In this document: positions 2,430 to 9,747 of the stretch, piece after piece | Layout of the letters: each line of letters starts with the position of its first letter | Numbering within the stretch: the stretch's first letter is position 1 | Assembly: GCA_964510585.1 (NCBI GenBank) | Contig: CAZECW010000041.1 | Location: forward strand, 1 to 9,747 | Direction of reading: 5' to 3' | Source of the DNA: an uncultured archaeon | Lineage (GTDB): Archaea > Asgardarchaeota > Jordiarchaeia > Jordiarchaeales > Jordiarchaeaceae | DNA length: 9,747 bases | Made by a program: the position numbers and the translations under genes | Notes under the pieces: model-generated | The model's database searches: none | What the model was told of the DNA's origin: nothing | The model's input: only the letters and a program-made list of their open reading frames with translations

Positions 2430-2805
2430 ATGAGTTAGTTTTGAGGAACAAATCGAAAAAGCAAAGAAGCCGGCATAGCGTATGAGCTTTATCGTTTACT
2501 ACGCGGCGCGTTAAATTACGCTGGTATGCCAACAGGTATTTTGACTTATACAGGTTCTAGGTGTGAGTTTAGGGAAGTCATTTCTGAATTCCCAGTTGAA
2601 GACGAAAAGGCGGATCTAACAGTTTTTGTATCTAAATTTGGTGGCGTTATTCAACCTTTTCTAATTATCTAAGAGGGTTTATAATAGACCAGATCCACCC
2701 GTTGCGAGTGCTGTGAAACAGGCTAGAAGCTACGCCTTAAAACTAGGTGTAACCATTACGCCTTTGCCATCTTTCAGACGCTCTTCAAAATTTTGCGGAA
2801 ATTGA
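2430..2805 (+). pseudogene. Decayed PD-(D/E)xK restriction-endonuclease domain (HsdR_N-like)
   Basis: Manual translation: ATG 2430, stops at 2436 and 2442, then ...EAGIAYELYRLLRG...REVISEFPVEDEKADLTVFVSKFGGVIQPFLII* (TAA 2670-2672). A +1 frame from 2671 reads KRVYNRPDPPVASAVKQARSYALKLGVT.... This shows the E..ADL..II[ExK]..QxxxY motif order of HsdR_N-type nucleases. Confidence 0.65.
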
Positions 2806-2880
2806 ACGCTTTGGTTGATGATTTAAGGATGTTGAGTGTGAGGCTACATATTTTGGGTAACAGGTTATCTTCATGACGCG

Positions 2881-2897
2881 TATGGGGGCTTCCCATA
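2881..2897. other. Small inverted repeat (tatggg-N5-cccata) between convergent genes
   Basis: 6-bp perfect stem about 40 nt past the operon's last stop codon. Its role is unknown. Confidence 0.25.
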
Positions 2898-2939
2898 AGT
2901 GTTTGGAGCGTCCAGATTGGAGGGGTTCGTGTACTTGTA

Positions 2940-3335
2940 CTATATGTTAGGTGGGGAGTGGAAGAAACCCACGGTTTTTAGTTTTATTCTATTTCCAAAG
3001 ATAGGTGCTAGGCTGGCCTCTTTGGCTTTGTATCTTATTTTCGGTTCTCTATTGAGAATGAGTTCTCCATTTATTGGAAATTGTATGATGTGGTTTCGCA
3101 ATTTGCTTGTTGAATCGATGAGAATTTTGCGTATGTATTTGGCGGTTTCTTCTCCTGCCAGAAGTGCTTCCTCGAGTCCTGTTACTGCAATTCTTTGATT
3201 TATGGTTTGTCGCCTGTGCAGTCTCCTGAGAAATTCTAGGATGCTTATTTTGTCCTTTATTTCTTCGAATTCTTTGCCTATCATTTTTCTCTCTACGAGG
3301 TTGTATCCCACTTCCATCAGTTGTAGGTTTTTCAT
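2940..3335 (-). CDS. Hypothetical protein, 131 aa, probably BrxB (DUF1788)-like inactive P-loop-fold protein
   Basis: ATGA overlap with the MTase stop and GGTGA RBS at 3342-3346. The motif series IAVTGLEE / IQFPINGEL / SLAPIFGNRI / FFHSPPNI parallels BrxB vfLTGxGE / vmFFPGEY / LxLFGxL / YYRAFNI as recalled. The CDS is well supported; the family call is tentative. Confidence 0.7.
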   Translation of the reverse strand: MKNLQLMEVGYNLVERKMIGKEFEEIKDKISILEFLRRLHRRQTINQRIAVTGLEEALLAGEETAKYIRKILIDSTSKLRNHIIQFPINGELILNREPKIRYKAKEASLAPIFGNRIKLKTVGFFHSPPNI

Positions 3336-5905
3336 CGATTTTCACCGATAAATTCTTCAAGTGTTGTAGGCTTTACCTTTTTGGGTATTGTGGTCGCCAC
3401 TCCTGCGATTTTTGCATAAACCTCGTCCCCCGTCTTTTTATACATTAATTCCGAAACTTTTTTGACTTCCTCCCCTCCATACTCTGACAGGTATTTCAAT
3501 ATTGGTTTACCCTCAGAATAGACTGTGTACATGAGGTGAACCTTGTCTATTGCTGAGAGATCTTCTCCTTTTCTGATTTTTTCTTCTATAAATAGTTTCC
3601 TCTCTTGGGGTTTCAAAATTTTTACGTTGTTTCCTACTTTTTCTATTAGCTTTTCTTTTATGAATGCGCCTATTTCTATTCCTCCTTTGCTTAGCCTCTT
3701 ATGGAGCGCATCGTAACTTATGCTGTCAAATCCCGTAAGGTAACTGCAATAAATTCTTGTTATTTCATTAATAACTCCCGATAGTGCCTCGGTATCCCTA
3801 ATCTTAAGAAGTGAGTCAATTATGTCGTCTATGTTGCTTACAGCTTCTTCAACTTTTACCTGTTTGCCATCTTTGAATATATTCGGGTAATGTTTCGAAT
3901 AAAGCTCAAGACATTTACCCATAGCAACCACAAACATATCTTCATCCCTCAAATCTCTGTCAGAGAGCCATAACCTCTCAAGAACTTCTCTTGCTCTATC
4001 ATGAATTCTGTCCTTGAGTGTTTCCCAACTTATCCTCTCAGGCTCTTCAAATGTTTTTTGACACACTATAATTATGTCGTACCGGATGCCCCCTCCATGT
4101 ACACCAACCCTCGCCTCAGACCTAACAGGGTATATCGCTGAAATTACGAAACGCGGCCATCCCTCTTCGTAGGCTTCAAGTATTGCCCTGAGGGTAGATG
4201 CCCATGCCTTGTTCCTTTCATGATGAAAAGTGAAAACCATTAATCCATCATCTTTAAGCACTCTATTGCACTCTTTAAAAACATTGGTTAAACCTCTCAA
4301 GAAGAAATCGTCACCTTTATTCTGAACAGGATTTTTTATGATCTCTCTGGAACGCGGCGAATAATCCCCTTGATAACAATTGTACCTATCCTGAAGAGCT
4401 AATCTTTGCCAAACGTAAAAGAAGTCCGCTATTTCTGAATACATTACATTATCGTAGTATGGGGGATCCGTTATGACTGCATCGATGGATTTGTCAAGTA
4501 TAAATGAGAGATCCTCGGATGTTTGGGCTTTTAACAACGCGTTGGCCTTCCCACTCAAAATTTCATCGAAACTCTCCCCCAAACATCCTCTCAAATTATG
4601 TCCAACGATGACTTTCTCTGAATTCCCGTTTCTAGATATGGTCTCATAAGGGTGAAGTGTGTAGTTTTTGGCTCGTAGAACTTTATCAACATAGCTTATG
4701 AAAGTCCCCCTTCCATACTTCGTTCCCCAAACATTGTTTTCTACAGGAGTATTTGGAGGCCAGTAAGCGTGATGCCCAAATAATGGTTCTAGCTTCCTGG
4801 CTCCTTGATTGTACTTACAAAACATGTTATTGGCGTTTATTGAATCTGAAAATGTTAGAATCATGAACTCTCTGATGTTTTCGTCCTCTATTTTCTGAAT
4901 CTCCGTCAGGAGCATAGAAAGGCAAAGAAGTTGGCGTTCATTAAACATTTGATGGAAGTATTCGTACTGAAAATTTTTTGCCTGTCTTGTATTATAACCG
5001 TCCGGAAGCTTTTGTTTTGGTATCAGGAGCTTGCCTTTTCTCTGCTCGAAATCTTCTTTGGACACTAAAAACTGTTTCTGGTCGTACTCATCGGCTTTTT
5101 TGTATCCTCTCTCTCTGCAATATGGGCAATAATACTCTACAGCGTAAATTTCTGCCTTTGGAATTTTTCCTTCCCGCCTCACAGATCTCAAAACCTCTCC
5201 CTTATCTCCGCATGCACAGAGATAGTACTTTCCCTCGATGTATCCCTCGAACGGAATAAACGTCTTCTCACAATTTGGGCACGGAATTTCCTTATTTAGC
5301 TCCCAAGTTTCAATTATCTCTTTACACGCAGGGCAGAAAACTACGTGAAGCTTATCCCCTAGAGAGGCTATTCTAAATGAGCTGAAAAGCGTAACATCAT
5401 TTCCACACCTAAGGCATTTAATTTTTTTCACCCAGAATGTATACATTGTGTCGGCTTCTCGGCCACATTTTGGGCATATGGTTCTATAGTATTTTTTGAT
5501 TTTGTCCGCAATTTTATCTTGAAGTTTATTAAATTCCTCCCTGAATTTGTCCAAATTCAAAGATTCAATTTCCTTCTTAGTTATGAACCAAGCCACAGGG
5601 TGAATATCTATCCCAATAACTCGGCAACCAAGCTTCAGCGCCTCAACAATGGTGGTTCCACCACCCATAAAAGGATCGAGGACTATCTTCTCACCAAATT
5701 CTGTTTTTTGGTAAAATTTTCTTAAAAGCTCATTTTCGGAAATATCCGATGGCAAGAATGTGGTCAAAATTATCATTCTGAATATGCTGCCAAGTCTTCT
5801 AGCCCACCACTTGTGAATTTGATAAATAGGCTTCTTAGCATTTGCTTCCCTCAGAGCAATTTCATTGAGCCTTTCAATTGGAAAATCTTTTATTATGTAA
5901 CTCAT
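3332..5905 (-). CDS. DUF1156 / COG1743 Zn-ribbon-containing DNA amino-methyltransferase (probably m6A), 857 aa
   Basis: DUF1156 N-terminus FPIERLN...IHKWWARR, SAM-binding motif I VLDPFMGGGTT, catalytic motif IV ITDPPYYDN, and Cys clusters CPKC, CLRC, CPAC, CPNC, CAC, CPYC between the two motifs. Confidence 0.92.
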   Translation of the reverse strand: MSYIIKDFPIERLNEIALREANAKKPIYQIHKWWARRLGSIFRMIILTTFLPSDISENELLRKFYQKTEFGEKIVLDPFMGGGTTIVEALKLGCRVIGIDIHPVAWFITKKEIESLNLDKFREEFNKLQDKIADKIKKYYRTICPKCGREADTMYTFWVKKIKCLRCGNDVTLFSSFRIASLGDKLHVVFCPACKEIIETWELNKEIPCPNCEKTFIPFEGYIEGKYYLCACGDKGEVLRSVRREGKIPKAEIYAVEYYCPYCRERGYKKADEYDQKQFLVSKEDFEQRKGKLLIPKQKLPDGYNTRQAKNFQYEYFHQMFNERQLLCLSMLLTEIQKIEDENIREFMILTFSDSINANNMFCKYNQGARKLEPLFGHHAYWPPNTPVENNVWGTKYGRGTFISYVDKVLRAKNYTLHPYETISRNGNSEKVIVGHNLRGCLGESFDEILSGKANALLKAQTSEDLSFILDKSIDAVITDPPYYDNVMYSEIADFFYVWQRLALQDRYNCYQGDYSPRSREIIKNPVQNKGDDFFLRGLTNVFKECNRVLKDDGLMVFTFHHERNKAWASTLRAILEAYEEGWPRFVISAIYPVRSEARVGVHGGGIRYDIIIVCQKTFEEPERISWETLKDRIHDRAREVLERLWLSDRDLRDEDMFVVAMGKCLELYSKHYPNIFKDGKQVKVEEAVSNIDDIIDSLLKIRDTEALSGVINEITRIYCSYLTGFDSISYDALHKRLSKGGIEIGAFIKEKLIEKVGNNVKILKPQERKLFIEEKIRKGEDLSAIDKVHLMYTVYSEGKPILKYLSEYGGEEVKKVSELMYKKTGDEVYAKIAGVATTIPKKVKPTTLEEFIGENR
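3342..3346 (-). promoter_or_regulatory. Ribosome-binding site GGTGA for the 131-aa gene
   Basis: 6 nt upstream of ATG 3335, inside the MTase 3' end. Confidence 0.6.
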
Positions 5906-6762
5906 AACTTCACCTCAATTCGAGGAACTATACATTCCATGAGAGACAATCCACCGTGAACTACAACTTTACCATAGCCTTCAATAGGCCAGAAGTACCT
6001 ACCTCTAACATAACAATAATTATCGTCGATAAGCACATAACTTGCATCTTTAGGAAGCTCCCTTAGTCTCTCTAAATCCTTTTGTCCAAATCGTGATATC
6101 TCGACGTATCGGCTAGACCCGAAGATTCGTTCTTTCAAGAACCTTCTGTCACCAGCACCCAAAGCCCAGACCGAATCGACCATTATATAGCCATGGTCGG
6201 AAGTGATAGTTACGGTAACACCTTCAACCATACTCAGAATTTCGAGCAATACTTGCTTTGTTTTGTTATATGCTTCTGGAGGCGGGATAATTCTTGCCGC
6301 ATGATGTAGAATTTCGTCTGGATAAGAAACCCAAACTGGCAGCCTGAAATCTATCCCTGAAGGGACTTTACCACTCTTAACCTCTGTGTATTTAACACCA
6401 AGGATGTTTCTGAACCTTTCCGTTGTGGATGGCAGGGCAGAGAAACCATAACTGTAGTCAACGATATTATAACATTTTTCTAAGTCTTTGAAGAGAAGAT
6501 TTCCTTCTCTAATGCTCATACCATCAATAATAACAATGGGGTTCTCGAGTTTGAAAGGGAATTTTGCCATTTGTTCATAGAGATAATCATATATCTCAAA
6601 AAAGGTGTTATTTAACTCCCACTCAAACTCGGAAATGGTATCTTCTTGGCGAAAATATGCACCACCACTGAAACTTGTATCCCACAAATCAACTAATATT
6701 TTCCAAGTTTCCTTTATTGGATCATCAGACTCAACAAGTCGCCTGATGTGTTCCTCACGCAA
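5902..6762 (-). CDS. pglZ: Stand-alone PglZ-domain protein (alkaline phosphatase superfamily phosphodiesterase), about 286 aa
   Basis: PglZ motifs in order: IVIIDGMS, SALPSTT (nucleophile loop), YPDEILH, ITSDHGY, VHGGLSLMECIVP. The start is placed at TTG 6762 (GAGGCTGA SD at 6768-6775, 8-nt overlap with the ATPase stop) rather than TTG 6825. Confidence 0.8.
   Translation of the reverse strand: MREEHIRRLVESDDPIKETWKILVDLWDTSFSGGAYFRQEDTISEFEWELNNTFFEIYDYLYEQMAKFPFKLENPIVIIDGMSIREGNLLFKDLEKCYNIVDYSYGFSALPSTTERFRNILGVKYTEVKSGKVPSGIDFRLPVWVSYPDEILHHAARIIPPPEAYNKTKQVLLEILSMVEGVTVTITSDHGYIMVDSVWALGAGDRRFLKERIFGSSRYVEISRFGQKDLERLRELPKDASYVLIDDNYCYVRGRYFWPIEGYGKVVVHGGLSLMECIVPRIEVKL
5910..5916 (-). 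promoter_or_regulatory. Ribosome-binding site GAGGTGA for the methyltransferase
   Basis: 4 nt upstream of ATG 5905, and complementary to the archaeal 16S 3' tail (…GAUCACCUC). Confidence 0.7.
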
Positions 6763-9295
6763 TCTTCTCAGCCTCAATAATGGCTTTAACGCGACCCCCA
6801 CCCAGAGAAGGGGGAAGTTTGTCAATTAATTCGACGATTTCCCTCTTACTCATAGAACCTCCGATAACCAATTTTAGTTTAACTACGGAAATTGTGGGTT
6901 TTCTGATGTTCAAGGACTTGACAAATGTCTCAAATGATTTGAAATCCTTAAAAGTTCCGTCTGAGAATTCCAGTTCGACTTCCTTCACCTGCACACTATC
7001 TGGAACTTTTCTCTCTACATCAACAGATAAACTGTACGGAGATGAATGTTCAGATATTTCAATCTGTAGTGGAACTTTTCTCTTTTCTTCCTCTTCGATA
7101 GATCCAACCTTTGTTTCAGCAAACGATTCAGTAGGCTTAAATGTCCTATCGGTAATTTCCCTAGCTTTCTTTTCTTTGACCTTTTCCTCTGTGATAATTT
7201 CTTCCGGGGAGGGAACATACTTACTCAAGATAACCTTCGTATCGTCTTTAAAAGATGGAAGGGGATCTGGTGTACGTGAACGCTTACCTCTGTATTCTAT
7301 CACTATCTTGTCTTGTGCATAAAGGGATCTTAGTGCTTCCTCAAGAAGGGCTTCGACTACAACTATGGGTTTACCTGGAGTAGCCTTAAAGTCATACCTT
7401 ATGTCTTCCAGTTTAAGTCCACTACCCTTCCCTTCAAGATGCTTAAGAATTTCACTACGAATTGTTTCGGTATCGTAACTTGCTTTAACGGTGGATCTTA
7501 CTTCATCTAAGTTGCATGGAACAAGTCGGTACTTAATTTCCCCATTCTCAAATCCCGTGACTCTAACCCAATAACCATAAAAATCAGAGAGCTTCTCCTT
7601 CAAGAACCTGCTGTCACGGTCTCTAAGCTTGTCAAGAAGGGTTTTATTCTCTCCTGAAATTTCACTCTCGTACTGTTCACATAGTCGAAGTCTTTCAGCT
7701 ATAACCAGCAAGTCTTCATTTTTTGTTAAATCCCCGCTTTTAGGAACGTACAAGATTAATCTGTTAGCGAATTTCTTCCCACTGTAAAATTTATTGATTT
7801 CAGATTGATTTAAAGTCTTAAGTGAAACAACTATTCTTATGCGATCAGCTTCAGCTCCCTCTATATCGTCGCAGTACCCACTATCGGGATGATATATGAT
7901 ATAGGAGGATTCTTTTCTTATTCTTGACTTAATTATGTCCAGAGCATCTTTTGTTTTTCCTCTGCTAATGGTCTCAATGGCCTTATTCTGAATTAGTGTA
8001 ACTATGTTTGCCTGGTATCCAATAATGTATCTGCTATCCCTGATCCAAATGTGGGATGATATGTTTGGCAAATCTAAAAGAACAGAATCGATGTCGTTAA
8101 TGTTCATTCCTGGTCGAAGCGCACCTAAAATAACATCATTTCTTGAGGCTCCGATACCTTTGCCTTCGCCAAACGAATAAAGCAAAATAGTATTTAACAA
8201 ACTTCTCACATTATCTTTTCCTATGAGCTCCGCATCCTTCTGTGCATTTTCTGTGAGAATTCTATCAAGCGATAATAGATCTCCTTCGCTCATATCAATG
8301 TCAGAGGTCAAAATCATATCCACATTTTCATATTTTTTTGCAATAACTGAAGCCAATAAGCAAAGAACACCACGTGTATTCTGGTAATTGGGGGAGCTAC
8401 TATATCTGGTCAATAGAGTATCCATTAGTTCTGGATGTATTGGATATAATTCAATCATTCGCTGTTCATATAGTGGCGAGTTTACTATCTCAACTTCTGA
8501 ATCGCGATAATGTTTAACATACGAGCTTACAATTCTGGAGGCAGCCTTCTTATCAATTTCCTCAAAGATTCGGAATAGGATAATTTTGTGTCTATCCTTT
8601 GACAACGTCAAATTTTCGCGGTAAGGCTCAACTCGATTTATCCTTGCTAATATTTCACTCACTTCCCCATACAAAGAGCAGAATACCAGTAACTTGGAAT
8701 TTTCTTCACATGCAATCTCCGCCAATACTTGAAGAAAATTTAGGTTGTTCTCCTTGTCTTTGACTCCTCTATACCAGCTTTCAACTTCGTCCATAATAAT
8801 GACAGTAAGTTCCCTATCTGCTAACGCCTTTTTAAGCAGCCCACTTCCAGGAAAAGTTGTGATTTCTTTCAACAAATTATCTTTGCCAAGACCATGAAAG
8901 ATAGGCTCCCAAAGGTGATTTGGGGGATAATCCATCAGAGAAAAAGCCAAAACAGCGGAGCCTTCTGGTAGACTCAAGCTCATATTATTATCTTTAATCC
9001 ACTTTTCTCCAATATGTGGACTCTTGAATAAGTGGTACAAAAGACACAGAATGCGGCTCTTACCGGTACCGAAACCACCCATTATTTCAAAGAAACCTTT
9101 ACTACTGGTTCCCTTCAGTTTCTCATCTATTGCCTTTAACAAATTTCTTATTTCAACCGAAGGGTAGGTTCCGTCAAAAATGTATTGAGGATTTTCCTCC
9201 TTCCCATGTTCAAATATACCTCTTAAACTATCCCAACCGTGTATATCCCCCTTTACTACATCATCTCTAAGCTTAACCACATCAGCTATTTTCAT
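6755..9295 (-). CDS. DUF499 / COG1483 AAA+ ATPase (BrxC/PglY-related), 846 aa
   Basis: N-terminal LRDDVVKG...IFDGTYP, Walker A GGFGTGKS, Walker B VIIMDEVE and the YPIHPEL motif (YPFHP in DUF499/BrxC). The start is placed at ATG 9295 (MKIADVVK) because GGTGA lies at 9300-9304; the track's ATG 9334 has no SD. Confidence 0.85.
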   Translation of the reverse strand: MKIADVVKLRDDVVKGDIHGWDSLRGIFEHGKEENPQYIFDGTYPSVEIRNLLKAIDEKLKGTSSKGFFEIMGGFGTGKSRILCLLYHLFKSPHIGEKWIKDNNMSLSLPEGSAVLAFSLMDYPPNHLWEPIFHGLGKDNLLKEITTFPGSGLLKKALADRELTVIIMDEVESWYRGVKDKENNLNFLQVLAEIACEENSKLLVFCSLYGEVSEILARINRVEPYRENLTLSKDRHKIILFRIFEEIDKKAASRIVSSYVKHYRDSEVEIVNSPLYEQRMIELYPIHPELMDTLLTRYSSSPNYQNTRGVLCLLASVIAKKYENVDMILTSDIDMSEGDLLSLDRILTENAQKDAELIGKDNVRSLLNTILLYSFGEGKGIGASRNDVILGALRPGMNINDIDSVLLDLPNISSHIWIRDSRYIIGYQANIVTLIQNKAIETISRGKTKDALDIIKSRIRKESSYIIYHPDSGYCDDIEGAEADRIRIVVSLKTLNQSEINKFYSGKKFANRLILYVPKSGDLTKNEDLLVIAERLRLCEQYESEISGENKTLLDKLRDRDSRFLKEKLSDFYGYWVRVTGFENGEIKYRLVPCNLDEVRSTVKASYDTETIRSEILKHLEGKGSGLKLEDIRYDFKATPGKPIVVVEALLEEALRSLYAQDKIVIEYRGKRSRTPDPLPSFKDDTKVILSKYVPSPEEIITEEKVKEKKAREITDRTFKPTESFAETKVGSIEEEEKRKVPLQIEISEHSSPYSLSVDVERKVPDSVQVKEVELEFSDGTFKDFKSFETFVKSLNIRKPTISVVKLKLVIGGSMSKREIVELIDKLPPSLGGGRVKAIIEAEKIA

Positions 9296-9299
9296 AAAA

Positions 9300-9304
9300 T
9301 CACC
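9300..9304 (-). promoter_or_regulatory. Ribosome-binding site GGTGA for the ATPase
   Basis: 4 nt upstream of ATG 9295. Confidence 0.65.
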
Positions 9305-9400
9305 GTAAAGGTAATGAAATATTTCTGTTGGCATATGGATAGGGCGCGCTACTAGTTATTGTGGCGCACATCTCCGCTCGTGGAGACTGATACATCAACA

Positions 9401-9409
9401 TTTTTTATA
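9401..9409 (-). promoter_or_regulatory. Putative TATA box (TATAAAAAA) for the defence operon
   Basis: Just downstream of the 9415 stop, preceded by purines (AAGGGG), in the only intergenic gap ahead of the operon. Confidence 0.35.
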
Positions 9410-9414
9410 CCCCC

Positions 9415-9729
9415 TTACCGCACAATTAGCTCTTTTAACTTTTCATTGGCATCTTCATTGGCGAAGAAGTTATCCTCAGTAACAAGAACGGAACTATAAT
9501 AAATTGCACCAGCTTTATGAGTTCTTAAAACACCTCTTAATTTTTTATGAAATCTTACACTTATGGGCAAGAGTTCGTTCAAGTAAAAGTCCCATTTACG
9601 CTTGTCATCCCAATTAGCGGTATCAATGATCTCTATGGCCACTCCCTTTTCCCGCAGCTTTTCAGCTAGTTCTTTTGCCTCTTGGATTCGCTTACTTTCA
9701 AGCATCGAATCATAGAGAAATTTAAGCAT
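9415..9729 (-). CDS. Hypothetical protein, 104 aa (possible Cys-less thioredoxin-like alpha/beta fold)
   Basis: Clean ORF with GGAGG RBS at 9737-9741 and natural composition. The apparent beta-alpha-beta-alpha-beta-beta-alpha pattern is judged by eye. Confidence 0.7.
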   Translation of the reverse strand: MLKFLYDSMLESKRIQEAKELAEKLREKGVAIEIIDTANWDDKRKWDFYLNELLPISVRFHKKLRGVLRTHKAGAIYYSSVLVTEDNFFANEDANEKLKELIVR

Positions 9730-9741: not shown

Positions 9742-9747
9742 AAATTG

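Follow-up and report, generated by a model that had tools for sequence, protein, structure and literature searches.

Can a defence locus related to BREX (bacteriophage exclusion) work with no helicase and with PglZ as its only candidate effector? This question is raised by a four-gene cassette on the window, which is the whole of contig C41 (9,747 bp) from the genome of a hot-spring Asgard archaeon (3.78 Mb, 217 contigs, 96% complete). The minus strand between 9334 and 2940 holds four long open reading frames (ORFs), encoding an AAA+ ATPase, a standalone PglZ, a DUF1156 methyltransferase (MTase) and a small DUF8076 protein (Table 1). Judged from its sequences, the cassette is a helicase-free variant of the Type-3 BREX-related (BR) systems, and it probably represents a self-contained, mobile, methylation-based defence cassette in which PglZ is the sole candidate effector.

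Gene organization and absence of a helicase

A sequence-only reading of the window had described four overlapping genes with Shine-Dalgarno (SD) signals in 6.36 kb, and its coordinates (9295..2940) and motifs were all reproduced. The overlaps measure 8 nt (ATPase/PglZ), 4 nt (PglZ/MTase) and 4 nt (MTase/small protein) in a unit of 6,356 bp, with SD-like GGTGA or GAGG lying 5-12 nt upstream of all four starts. Gene starts were set by comparison with homologues; the first ATG of the ATPase ORF, at 9334, is 13 codons upstream of the start seen in homologues, and the TTG start of PglZ gives M-REEHIRRLVE, again matching homologues. The unit is not a chance arrangement: full-length homologues number in the dozens for every one of the four proteins, and complete loci keep their genes in this order.

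As that reading had also proposed, Pfam, PADLOC and NCBIfam scans of the window proteins detected neither a helicase nor a BrxL or nuclease domain, leaving PglZ as the only candidate effector enzyme of the cassette. Further genes had been thought possible past position 9747, and nothing relevant emerged in the extension available on L020, an 18 kb JGI hot-spring contig that matches the window over its full length at 100% identity and reaches 3.6 kb past this position. Towards and past the end of the window, L020 carries a 104-aa ORF, then small opposite-strand genes of 250, 86 and 69 aa, a 309-aa SDH_protease and a 79-aa ORF, and no ORF in the 3.6 kb has a helicase, nuclease or PADLOC match. 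Sequencing runs of hot-spring metagenomes, drawn from at least two studies, also contain near-identical DNA, and none of the listed carriers is an RNA run.

Comparison with Type-3 BR and other known systems

Three DUF499-centred BR types were described in January 2026 (Rakesh & Krishnan, Nucleic Acids Res 2026; PMC12839542). Type-3 BR, reported from 569 taxa, 134 of them archaeal, comprises the ATPase, a DUF1156 MTase (in a subset with two four-cysteine zinc fingers) and a nuclease-less BrxHII-like Swi2/Snf2 helicase, together with a near-universal standalone PglZ, proposed as the primary effector, and an iSTAND protein in 82%. The type 'retains all three core components', the helicase being counted as core (PMC12839542). 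Features shared with the window include a DUF499/BrxC ATPase, a DUF1156 MTase with a nested target recognition domain (TRD) and zinc fingers, a standalone PglZ with intact metal ligands, the lack of a linked nuclease, and the gene order of the canonical locus L028. Four of the five Type-3 BR components have a counterpart here, that of the small inactive P-loop-like iSTAND only tentatively, and the helicase has none. In contrast to Type-3 BR, no Swi2/Snf2 (BrxHII-like) helicase is present in the window, the 3.6 kb of L020 or 18 related loci; the window ATPase is very divergent; the small protein of L028 (170 aa) has no detectable similarity to the 131-aa DUF8076 protein; and iSTAND is called fast-evolving (PMC12839542), whereas DUF8076 is highly conserved.

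The locus had been viewed as a stripped-down core whose novelty would lie in its minimal composition and its function. This view stands for the missing helicase, which falls outside the Type-3 BR description, and gives way for the components and the PglZ-effector idea, which were already published under that name. Helicase-less forms are not mentioned in the text of PMC12839542 as far as found, although its Supplementary Data S1 neighbourhood lists may include such loci. What remains new is a composition that lacks the helicase and is conserved across deep archaeal lineages, DUF8076 as the partner protein, and a hint, from sequence comparison, of accessory helicases.

The expected lack of a match to BREX types 1-6 was borne out, with the three core activities divergent and no BrxA, BrxL, BrxH, PglW, BrxD or BrxP model matching. 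No PADLOC model matched in full, the partial matches being HmaC/DUF499, PglZ and HmaB/PglXI only, and no window protein reaches the curated whole-protein cut-off of a defence-specific model. Type-3 BREX consists of BrxF, BrxC, PglXI, BrxHII, PglZ and BrxA (Goldfarb 2015, as summarised in PMC12839542); it resembles the window in its PglXI-type MTase with nested TRD, BrxC-like ATPase and PglZ catalytic domain, and differs in having BrxA and BrxHII, while the window MTase has a DUF1156 N-terminus. The window PglZ is devoid of accessory domains, with 286 aa against the 641-855 positions of PADLOC PglZ models.

For MANTIS (Gao_RL, BR type 2), an experimentally supported model has the DUF1156 MTase hemimethylate asymmetric sites only once the DUF499 ATPase, acting with a small co-regulator, has loaded and activated it (bioRxiv 10.64898/2026.09.23.753747). 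Both MANTIS and the window have a four-gene operon that combines a DUF1156 MTase with a DUF499 ATPase and a small co-regulator (putative in the window), but the MANTIS effector MtsD is a PLD-nuclease/superfamily 2 (SF2) helicase rather than PglZ, and its small protein belongs to DUF3780, a family specific to BR type 2, rather than DUF8076. Hma (BR type 1) differs by its helicase-nuclease effector HmaA, none being found in or near the window cassette. In type-1 BREX, the ATPase is tuned by BrxB, an inactive AAA+ domain that links BrxC to PglZ (PMC13326643). AAA+ ATPase, inactive AAA+-like adaptor and PglZ plausibly fill the same three roles in the window, whereas BrxA, BrxL and PglX are absent and no sequence relation between BrxB and DUF8076 was detected.

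Recurrence of the cassette and its helicases

Genomic contexts were obtained from identical-protein look-ups, plasmid records and 80 metagenome loci, with helicases screened by Pfam and a dedicated hidden Markov model for a ~540-aa helicase. Across 91 scanned loci, the order ATPase-PglZ-MTase-DUF8076 is kept in every one of the 41 that hold all four genes. The flanking tally covers 38 complete cassettes, with at least 3 kb downstream in 15 and at least 3 kb upstream in 17. Recurrence of the four-gene unit on its own had been set as a test by clustering of neighbourhoods, and the unit does recur alone, in 18 helicase-less loci with at least 1.7 kb downstream, spread over several deep archaeal clades.

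A helicase directly follows the DUF8076 gene in just five loci (L081, L091, L100, L103 and L110). In the PglZ tree all five fall within one 24-row clade (support 98/99), and all 18 helicase-less loci lie outside it, nine in the window's 33-row clade and the others in clades including a haloarchaeal one that is sister to the helicase clade. The helicase of the five loci is ~540 aa and PbeA/XPB-like (PADLOC PbeA 276 bits), while at the same position the canonical five-gene relative (L028/L029) encodes a 924-aa BrxHII/HmaA-type SNF2 helicase (BrxHI/BrxHII 336 bits, HmaA 315 bits). L028 has the gene order of the window, the ATPase, PglZ and MTase profiles all match L028 proteins, and the catalytic motifs of these three enzymes are invariant down to ~25-30% identity. 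The presence of two non-orthologous helicases at one position, and of helicase-less forms across several deep clades, speaks for a four-gene core to which helicases would be add-ons; the tree itself, rooted by one very long branch only, does not set the direction of helicase gain or loss.

This distribution also bears on whether the window holds a degenerate remnant of five-gene Type-3 BR that has lost its helicase and persists as an orphan methylation module or as inert genes. Such a remnant would suit the published Type-3 BR definition, which includes the helicase (PMC12839542), and some relatives do carry a helicase gene immediately behind the small one. We consider it quite unlikely, as none of the four ORFs is disrupted and the catalytic motifs are invariant, even those of PglZ, an enzyme that would be superfluous for a methylation-only module. 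Moreover, helicase-less loci span several deep clades (~30% mutual identity) whereas helicase-bearing ones form one clade, and PbeA/XPB-like and BrxHII/SNF2 helicases belong to different families, which fits independent additions better than repeated loss.

It is likewise unlikely that the defence works but draws in trans on a helicase or nuclease from another part of the genome. The window's genome does encode XPB-like SF2 helicases, none of them cassette-linked, with 31-35% identity to the cassette helicase of the related clade, as well as one SNF2 helicase, and the fragmentation of the assembly adds weight to this possibility. However, these helicases sit in unrelated contexts, and the cassette moves among very different hosts and plasmids with nothing else conserved, which is the ground on which its autonomy is argued. 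The single SNF2 helicase, a 1038-aa DUF3670-SNF2 protein, is encoded mid-contig on C167 ahead of a SWIM zinc-finger protein (L019, 6113-10152), and DUF3670-SNF2/SWIM is a recurrent pair unrelated to the cassette. The HmaA model gives weak generic helicase matches only, elsewhere in the same genome.

Variation around the core was observed in several relatives. L072, L073 and L080, from one helicase-less clade, have ~4.5-5 kb inserted between PglZ and MTase, comprising a methylase-like fragment or second methylase-like gene, a ~370-aa protein of no assigned family, and a 484-532-aa AAA_22/AAA_16 ATPase with a faint BrxC_BrxD match. Between the same two genes, the helicase-bearing clade carries an HD-domain protein (428 aa) or a DUF3800-like protein (L081, 10828-12111; L100, 10888-11925), and in L100 a 911-aa UvrD-helicase/PD-(D/E)XK (Cas4-like) fusion follows the PbeA-like helicase (16755-19487). 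The helicase beside the Haladaptatus plasmid copy was considered as a cassette component and rejected, being of PDC-S28 type, on the opposite strand and part of another defence system, and it has no relative in the window's genome.

Components of the cassette

The ATPase matches several PADLOC models (HmaC 72 bits, DUF499 29 bits, and also SspC), all partially, and NCBIfam DUF499_antiphage over its N-terminal region only (45 bits, cut-off 1200). Local Pfam gives a weak AAA_22 match only, the DUF499 model missing the window protein. Some of its 46 homologues carry PF19557 or PF04465, and of 17 family members scanned, two match Pfam DUF499 and one matches DUF6079; the family profile additionally matches the ATPase of canonical locus L028. 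These matches indicate that the ATPase is a divergent member of the DUF499/BrxC superfamily, the class found in Type-3 BR. The earlier label 'DUF499 ATPase' is supported by the partial DUF499/HmaC matches and the Walker motifs, while remaining loose. The C-terminus is predicted to comprise a winged helix-turn-helix (wHTH), a disordered acidic linker and a small terminal domain. An AlphaFold2 model of the last 250 residues, checked against the wHTH and RNA recognition motif (RRM)/ferredoxin-like domains of Type-3 BR, displays a wHTH-like unit, a disordered stretch and a terminal ~100-aa domain with a predicted local distance difference test (pLDDT) score of ~60-80 and no strands assigned.

PglZ displays the motifs IIDGMS, PSTT, PDE, SDHGY and HGGLS. 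An alignment of 21 sequences down to 31% identity contains 28 invariant positions, including all signature motifs (D, S, PSxT, PD, SDHGY, HGG). Scores against Pfam PglZ (21 bits) and PADLOC PglZ (31 bits) are accompanied by family-profile matches to the BREX PglZ structures 9nv3 and 9zn5 and to PorX. By these comparisons the protein is the catalytic core only, of alkaline-phosphatase/nucleotide pyrophosphatase/phosphodiesterase (NPP) type, in the standalone form seen in Type-3 BR. Clustering at 50% gives the standalone PglZ family 564 representatives (E<=1e-3), most of the listed ones being ~280-360 aa long alongside shorter fragments, and a viral-contig scan with the PglZ profile revealed no relatives.

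In the MTase, FMGGG and DPPY are ~400 residues apart with CxxC pairs in between, splitting the N6_N4_Mtase match. It scores 3.4e-17 with Pfam N6_N4_Mtase, 110 bits with PADLOC HmaB, 107 bits with PADLOC PglXI, and 125 bits with NCBIfam DUF1156_antiphage. The predicted enzyme is clearly a DUF1156/PglXI/HmaB-type N6-adenine MTase with the nested TRD and zinc fingers of its Type-3 BR counterparts. MTases of the window's clade end in a conserved tail of the form ..K(V/A)KPTTLEEF.., for which haloarchaeal members have ..TQLDLEDFS (Qxx[L]xxF, resembling a PCNA-interacting PIP box); the tail is absent from the helicase-bearing clade and the L069-L080 clade. Its sequence pattern could be that of a peptide docking PCNA or a partner.

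The 131-aa protein has no match in local libraries, and all 73 of its homologues carry the precomputed family PF26277 (DUF8076). Its C-terminus is conserved (IFGNR...GYFHSPPNI), and its conservation equals or exceeds that of the enzymes, with 57% identity between L005 and the window compared with 49-50% for the ATPase and PglZ. The AlphaFold model (pLDDT 95.3, predicted template modelling score 0.89) depicts a small alpha/beta domain with no Walker A motif, which models as a degenerate P-loop/AAA+-like domain with weak resemblance to the AAA+-core fold. The gene sits where Type-3 BR loci have iSTAND. A Foldseek comparison of the model with the PDB returned no match at E <= 0.001, a sequence-profile search of the PDB returned nothing meaningful, ESM Atlas feature searches gave no usable match for DUF8076 or the L028 small protein, and the literature searched makes no mention of DUF8076.

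The sequence-only reading had called this protein 'BrxB-like', a term that survives for the fold class only, with the functional analogy reasonable, while BrxB profile comparisons were negative. Homology to BrxB was rejected on an hhalign probability of 0.05% against four Asgard BrxB proteins, where thin partner alignments make this no proof of non-homology, and the Pfam BrxB model has no match anywhere in the window's genome. Relationship to the 170-aa L028 protein was similarly rejected (hhalign 3.6% probability, the partner alignment again being thin). A three-chain complex prediction (ATPase 1-470, PglZ and DUF8076) speaks neither for nor against an assembly, because one control reached the score of the complex itself; with three chains, that control does not tell the two retained chains apart.

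Table 1. Predicted features of the window cassette, with positions on the 9,747-bp window.
Feature	Position	Strand	Remark
AAA+ ATPase, DUF499/BrxC superfamily	9295..6755	-	846 aa
ATPase Walker A GGFGTGKS	9056-9079	-	invariant G..GK
ATPase Walker B VIIMDE	8786-8803	-	invariant DE
Standalone PglZ	6762..5902	-	286 aa; TTG start
DUF1156 N6-adenine MTase	5905..3332	-	857 aa
MTase DUF1156 N-terminus	5738-5884	-	Pfam DUF1156 4.5e-6
MTase motif I FMGGG	5657-5671	-	residue 79
MTase zinc-ribbon TRD insert	5117-5476	-	five CxxC pairs + CAC, residues 144-263
MTase motif IV DPPY	4457-4468	-	residue 480
MTase conserved C-terminal tail KKVKPTTLEEFIGENR	3335-3382	-	tail conservation among related loci
DUF8076 small protein	3335..2940	-	131 aa

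Distribution and genomic neighbourhood

Of 400 genomes of the phylum searched with the PglZ profile, 3 carry the cassette, and it was not found in any of five congeners. The cassette is archaeal, as the sequence-only reading had it, the lineage of the genome being judged by the names attached to the best matches. Close homologues bear names including Freyarchaeota and Jordarchaeales (both labelled Asgard), Bathyarchaeia and Thermoproteota metagenome-assembled genomes, and distant copies (27-31% PglZ identity) reside on plasmids of cultured Halorubrum, Haloplanus, Natrarchaeobaculum, Haladaptatus and Halobacterium. Flanks are otherwise unrelated, encompassing integrases, transposases, housekeeping genes, prokaryotic Argonaute (pAgo), AbiE, McrB-like and OLD-like ATPases, and the PDC-S28 helicase; the large ORFs flanking helicase-less loci are housekeeping genes, transposases or other defence genes. 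In L010 (Halorubrum lacusprofundi ATCC 49239, pHLAC01, cassette genes HLAC_RS16270-16285), a class I pAgo (7987-9411) lies directly upstream and a separate DNA adenine methylase (16130-16984) directly downstream, a gene content that resembles a defence island, here in a host that is cultured and tractable.

Residence on plasmids and beside integrases would also suit a module for mobile-element maintenance, addiction or epigenetic regulation rather than antiviral defence, the substrate of PglZ being a nucleotide or a signalling molecule instead of DNA. By its core, PglZ falls within the NPP phosphodiesterase superfamily, where hydrolysis of small nucleotides is the usual activity, and PglZ domains of the PorX type work in signalling. 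Nevertheless, such a role is very unlikely, given that BREX-related defence systems share homology with three of the genes and synteny with all four, that the distribution is sporadic and defence-island-like, and that a Pfam scan found no signalling receiver domain.

Proposed mechanism

Defence by a mobile, self-contained cassette is the reading we prefer. Set beside the genes, motifs, conservation, synteny, helicase absence and sporadic distribution observed, every step of the mechanism proposed here is drawn by analogy with MANTIS and type-1 BREX. A monomeric DUF1156 MTase would recognise a short asymmetric site via its zinc-ribbon TRD and modify one adenine only once loaded and activated by the AAA+ ATPase and DUF8076. 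The latter, a predicted catalytically dead P-loop-like domain, would fill the BrxB/iSTAND (or MtsB) role in regulating the ATPase and tethering PglZ. On encountering unmethylated incoming DNA, the ATPase-centred complex would switch on PglZ, a predicted metal-dependent phosphodiesterase, resulting in a nick or other damage to the invader.

Several points weigh against this proposal. The cassette family is known from sequences alone, and all published BR types, including the mechanistically dissected MANTIS, need a helicase-containing effector, so that motor-less restriction is unproven. The genome is 96% complete, making a trans-acting partner possible. In type-1 BREX, BrxB binds PglZ residues 1-98, a domain missing in mini-PglZ. 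Finally, DUF499/BrxC models cover only parts of the N-terminal half of the ATPase, and its C-terminal domain is modelled poorly.

A bolder version of the proposal, which we regard as doubtful, holds that the four-gene unit is an autonomous and possibly ancestral archaeal BR/BREX core, with helicases as later, independent add-ons. PglZ alone would then restrict, and the MTase tail (TLEEF/QLDLEDF) would dock PCNA or a partner, replacing the motor through coupling to the replisome.

Flanking features of the window

Downstream of the DUF8076 gene lie a 98-aa ORF and a gene for a beta-keto-acid cleavage enzyme (BKACE), the latter flanked by a 43-nt imperfect direct repeat of 77% identity (window ~311-353 and ~1883-1925; L020 12983-13025 and 11411-11453). 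AT skew is +0.25 to +0.37 over positions 1-2500, which hold plus-strand genes, and -0.27 to -0.32 over 2500-4000, while GC skew is negative along the minus-strand cassette; these skews are consistent with purine loading of coding strands. At 9415-9729 on the minus strand, 80 nt upstream of the ATPase, the 104-aa ORF has a weak RecX_HTH1 match, and its homologues are confined to near-identical contigs and the Freyarchaeota locus L006 (79% identity). It is missing from the other cassette loci, which have different small helix-turn-helix genes (HxlR, PF0610-like) at this position, and regulators of the cassette may accordingly vary between loci. No tRNA genes, att-like repeats flanking the cassette or Rfam matches were found.

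Implications

The antiviral action of BREX-type systems and the role of PglZ within it are unsettled, and the systems studied have six genes or a helicase-nuclease that masks the contribution of PglZ. A helicase-free cassette with PglZ as its sole candidate effector could therefore serve as a minimal model of PglZ-based immunity. The question would be directly testable, as the cassette resides on plasmids of cultured, tractable haloarchaea (Halorubrum lacusprofundi pHLAC01, Haloplanus, Natrarchaeobaculum and Halobacterium). PADLOC-DB v2.0.0 (2023) contains no model matching the cassette family in full, and the published Type-3 BR definition, with the helicase as core, is too narrow for archaea.

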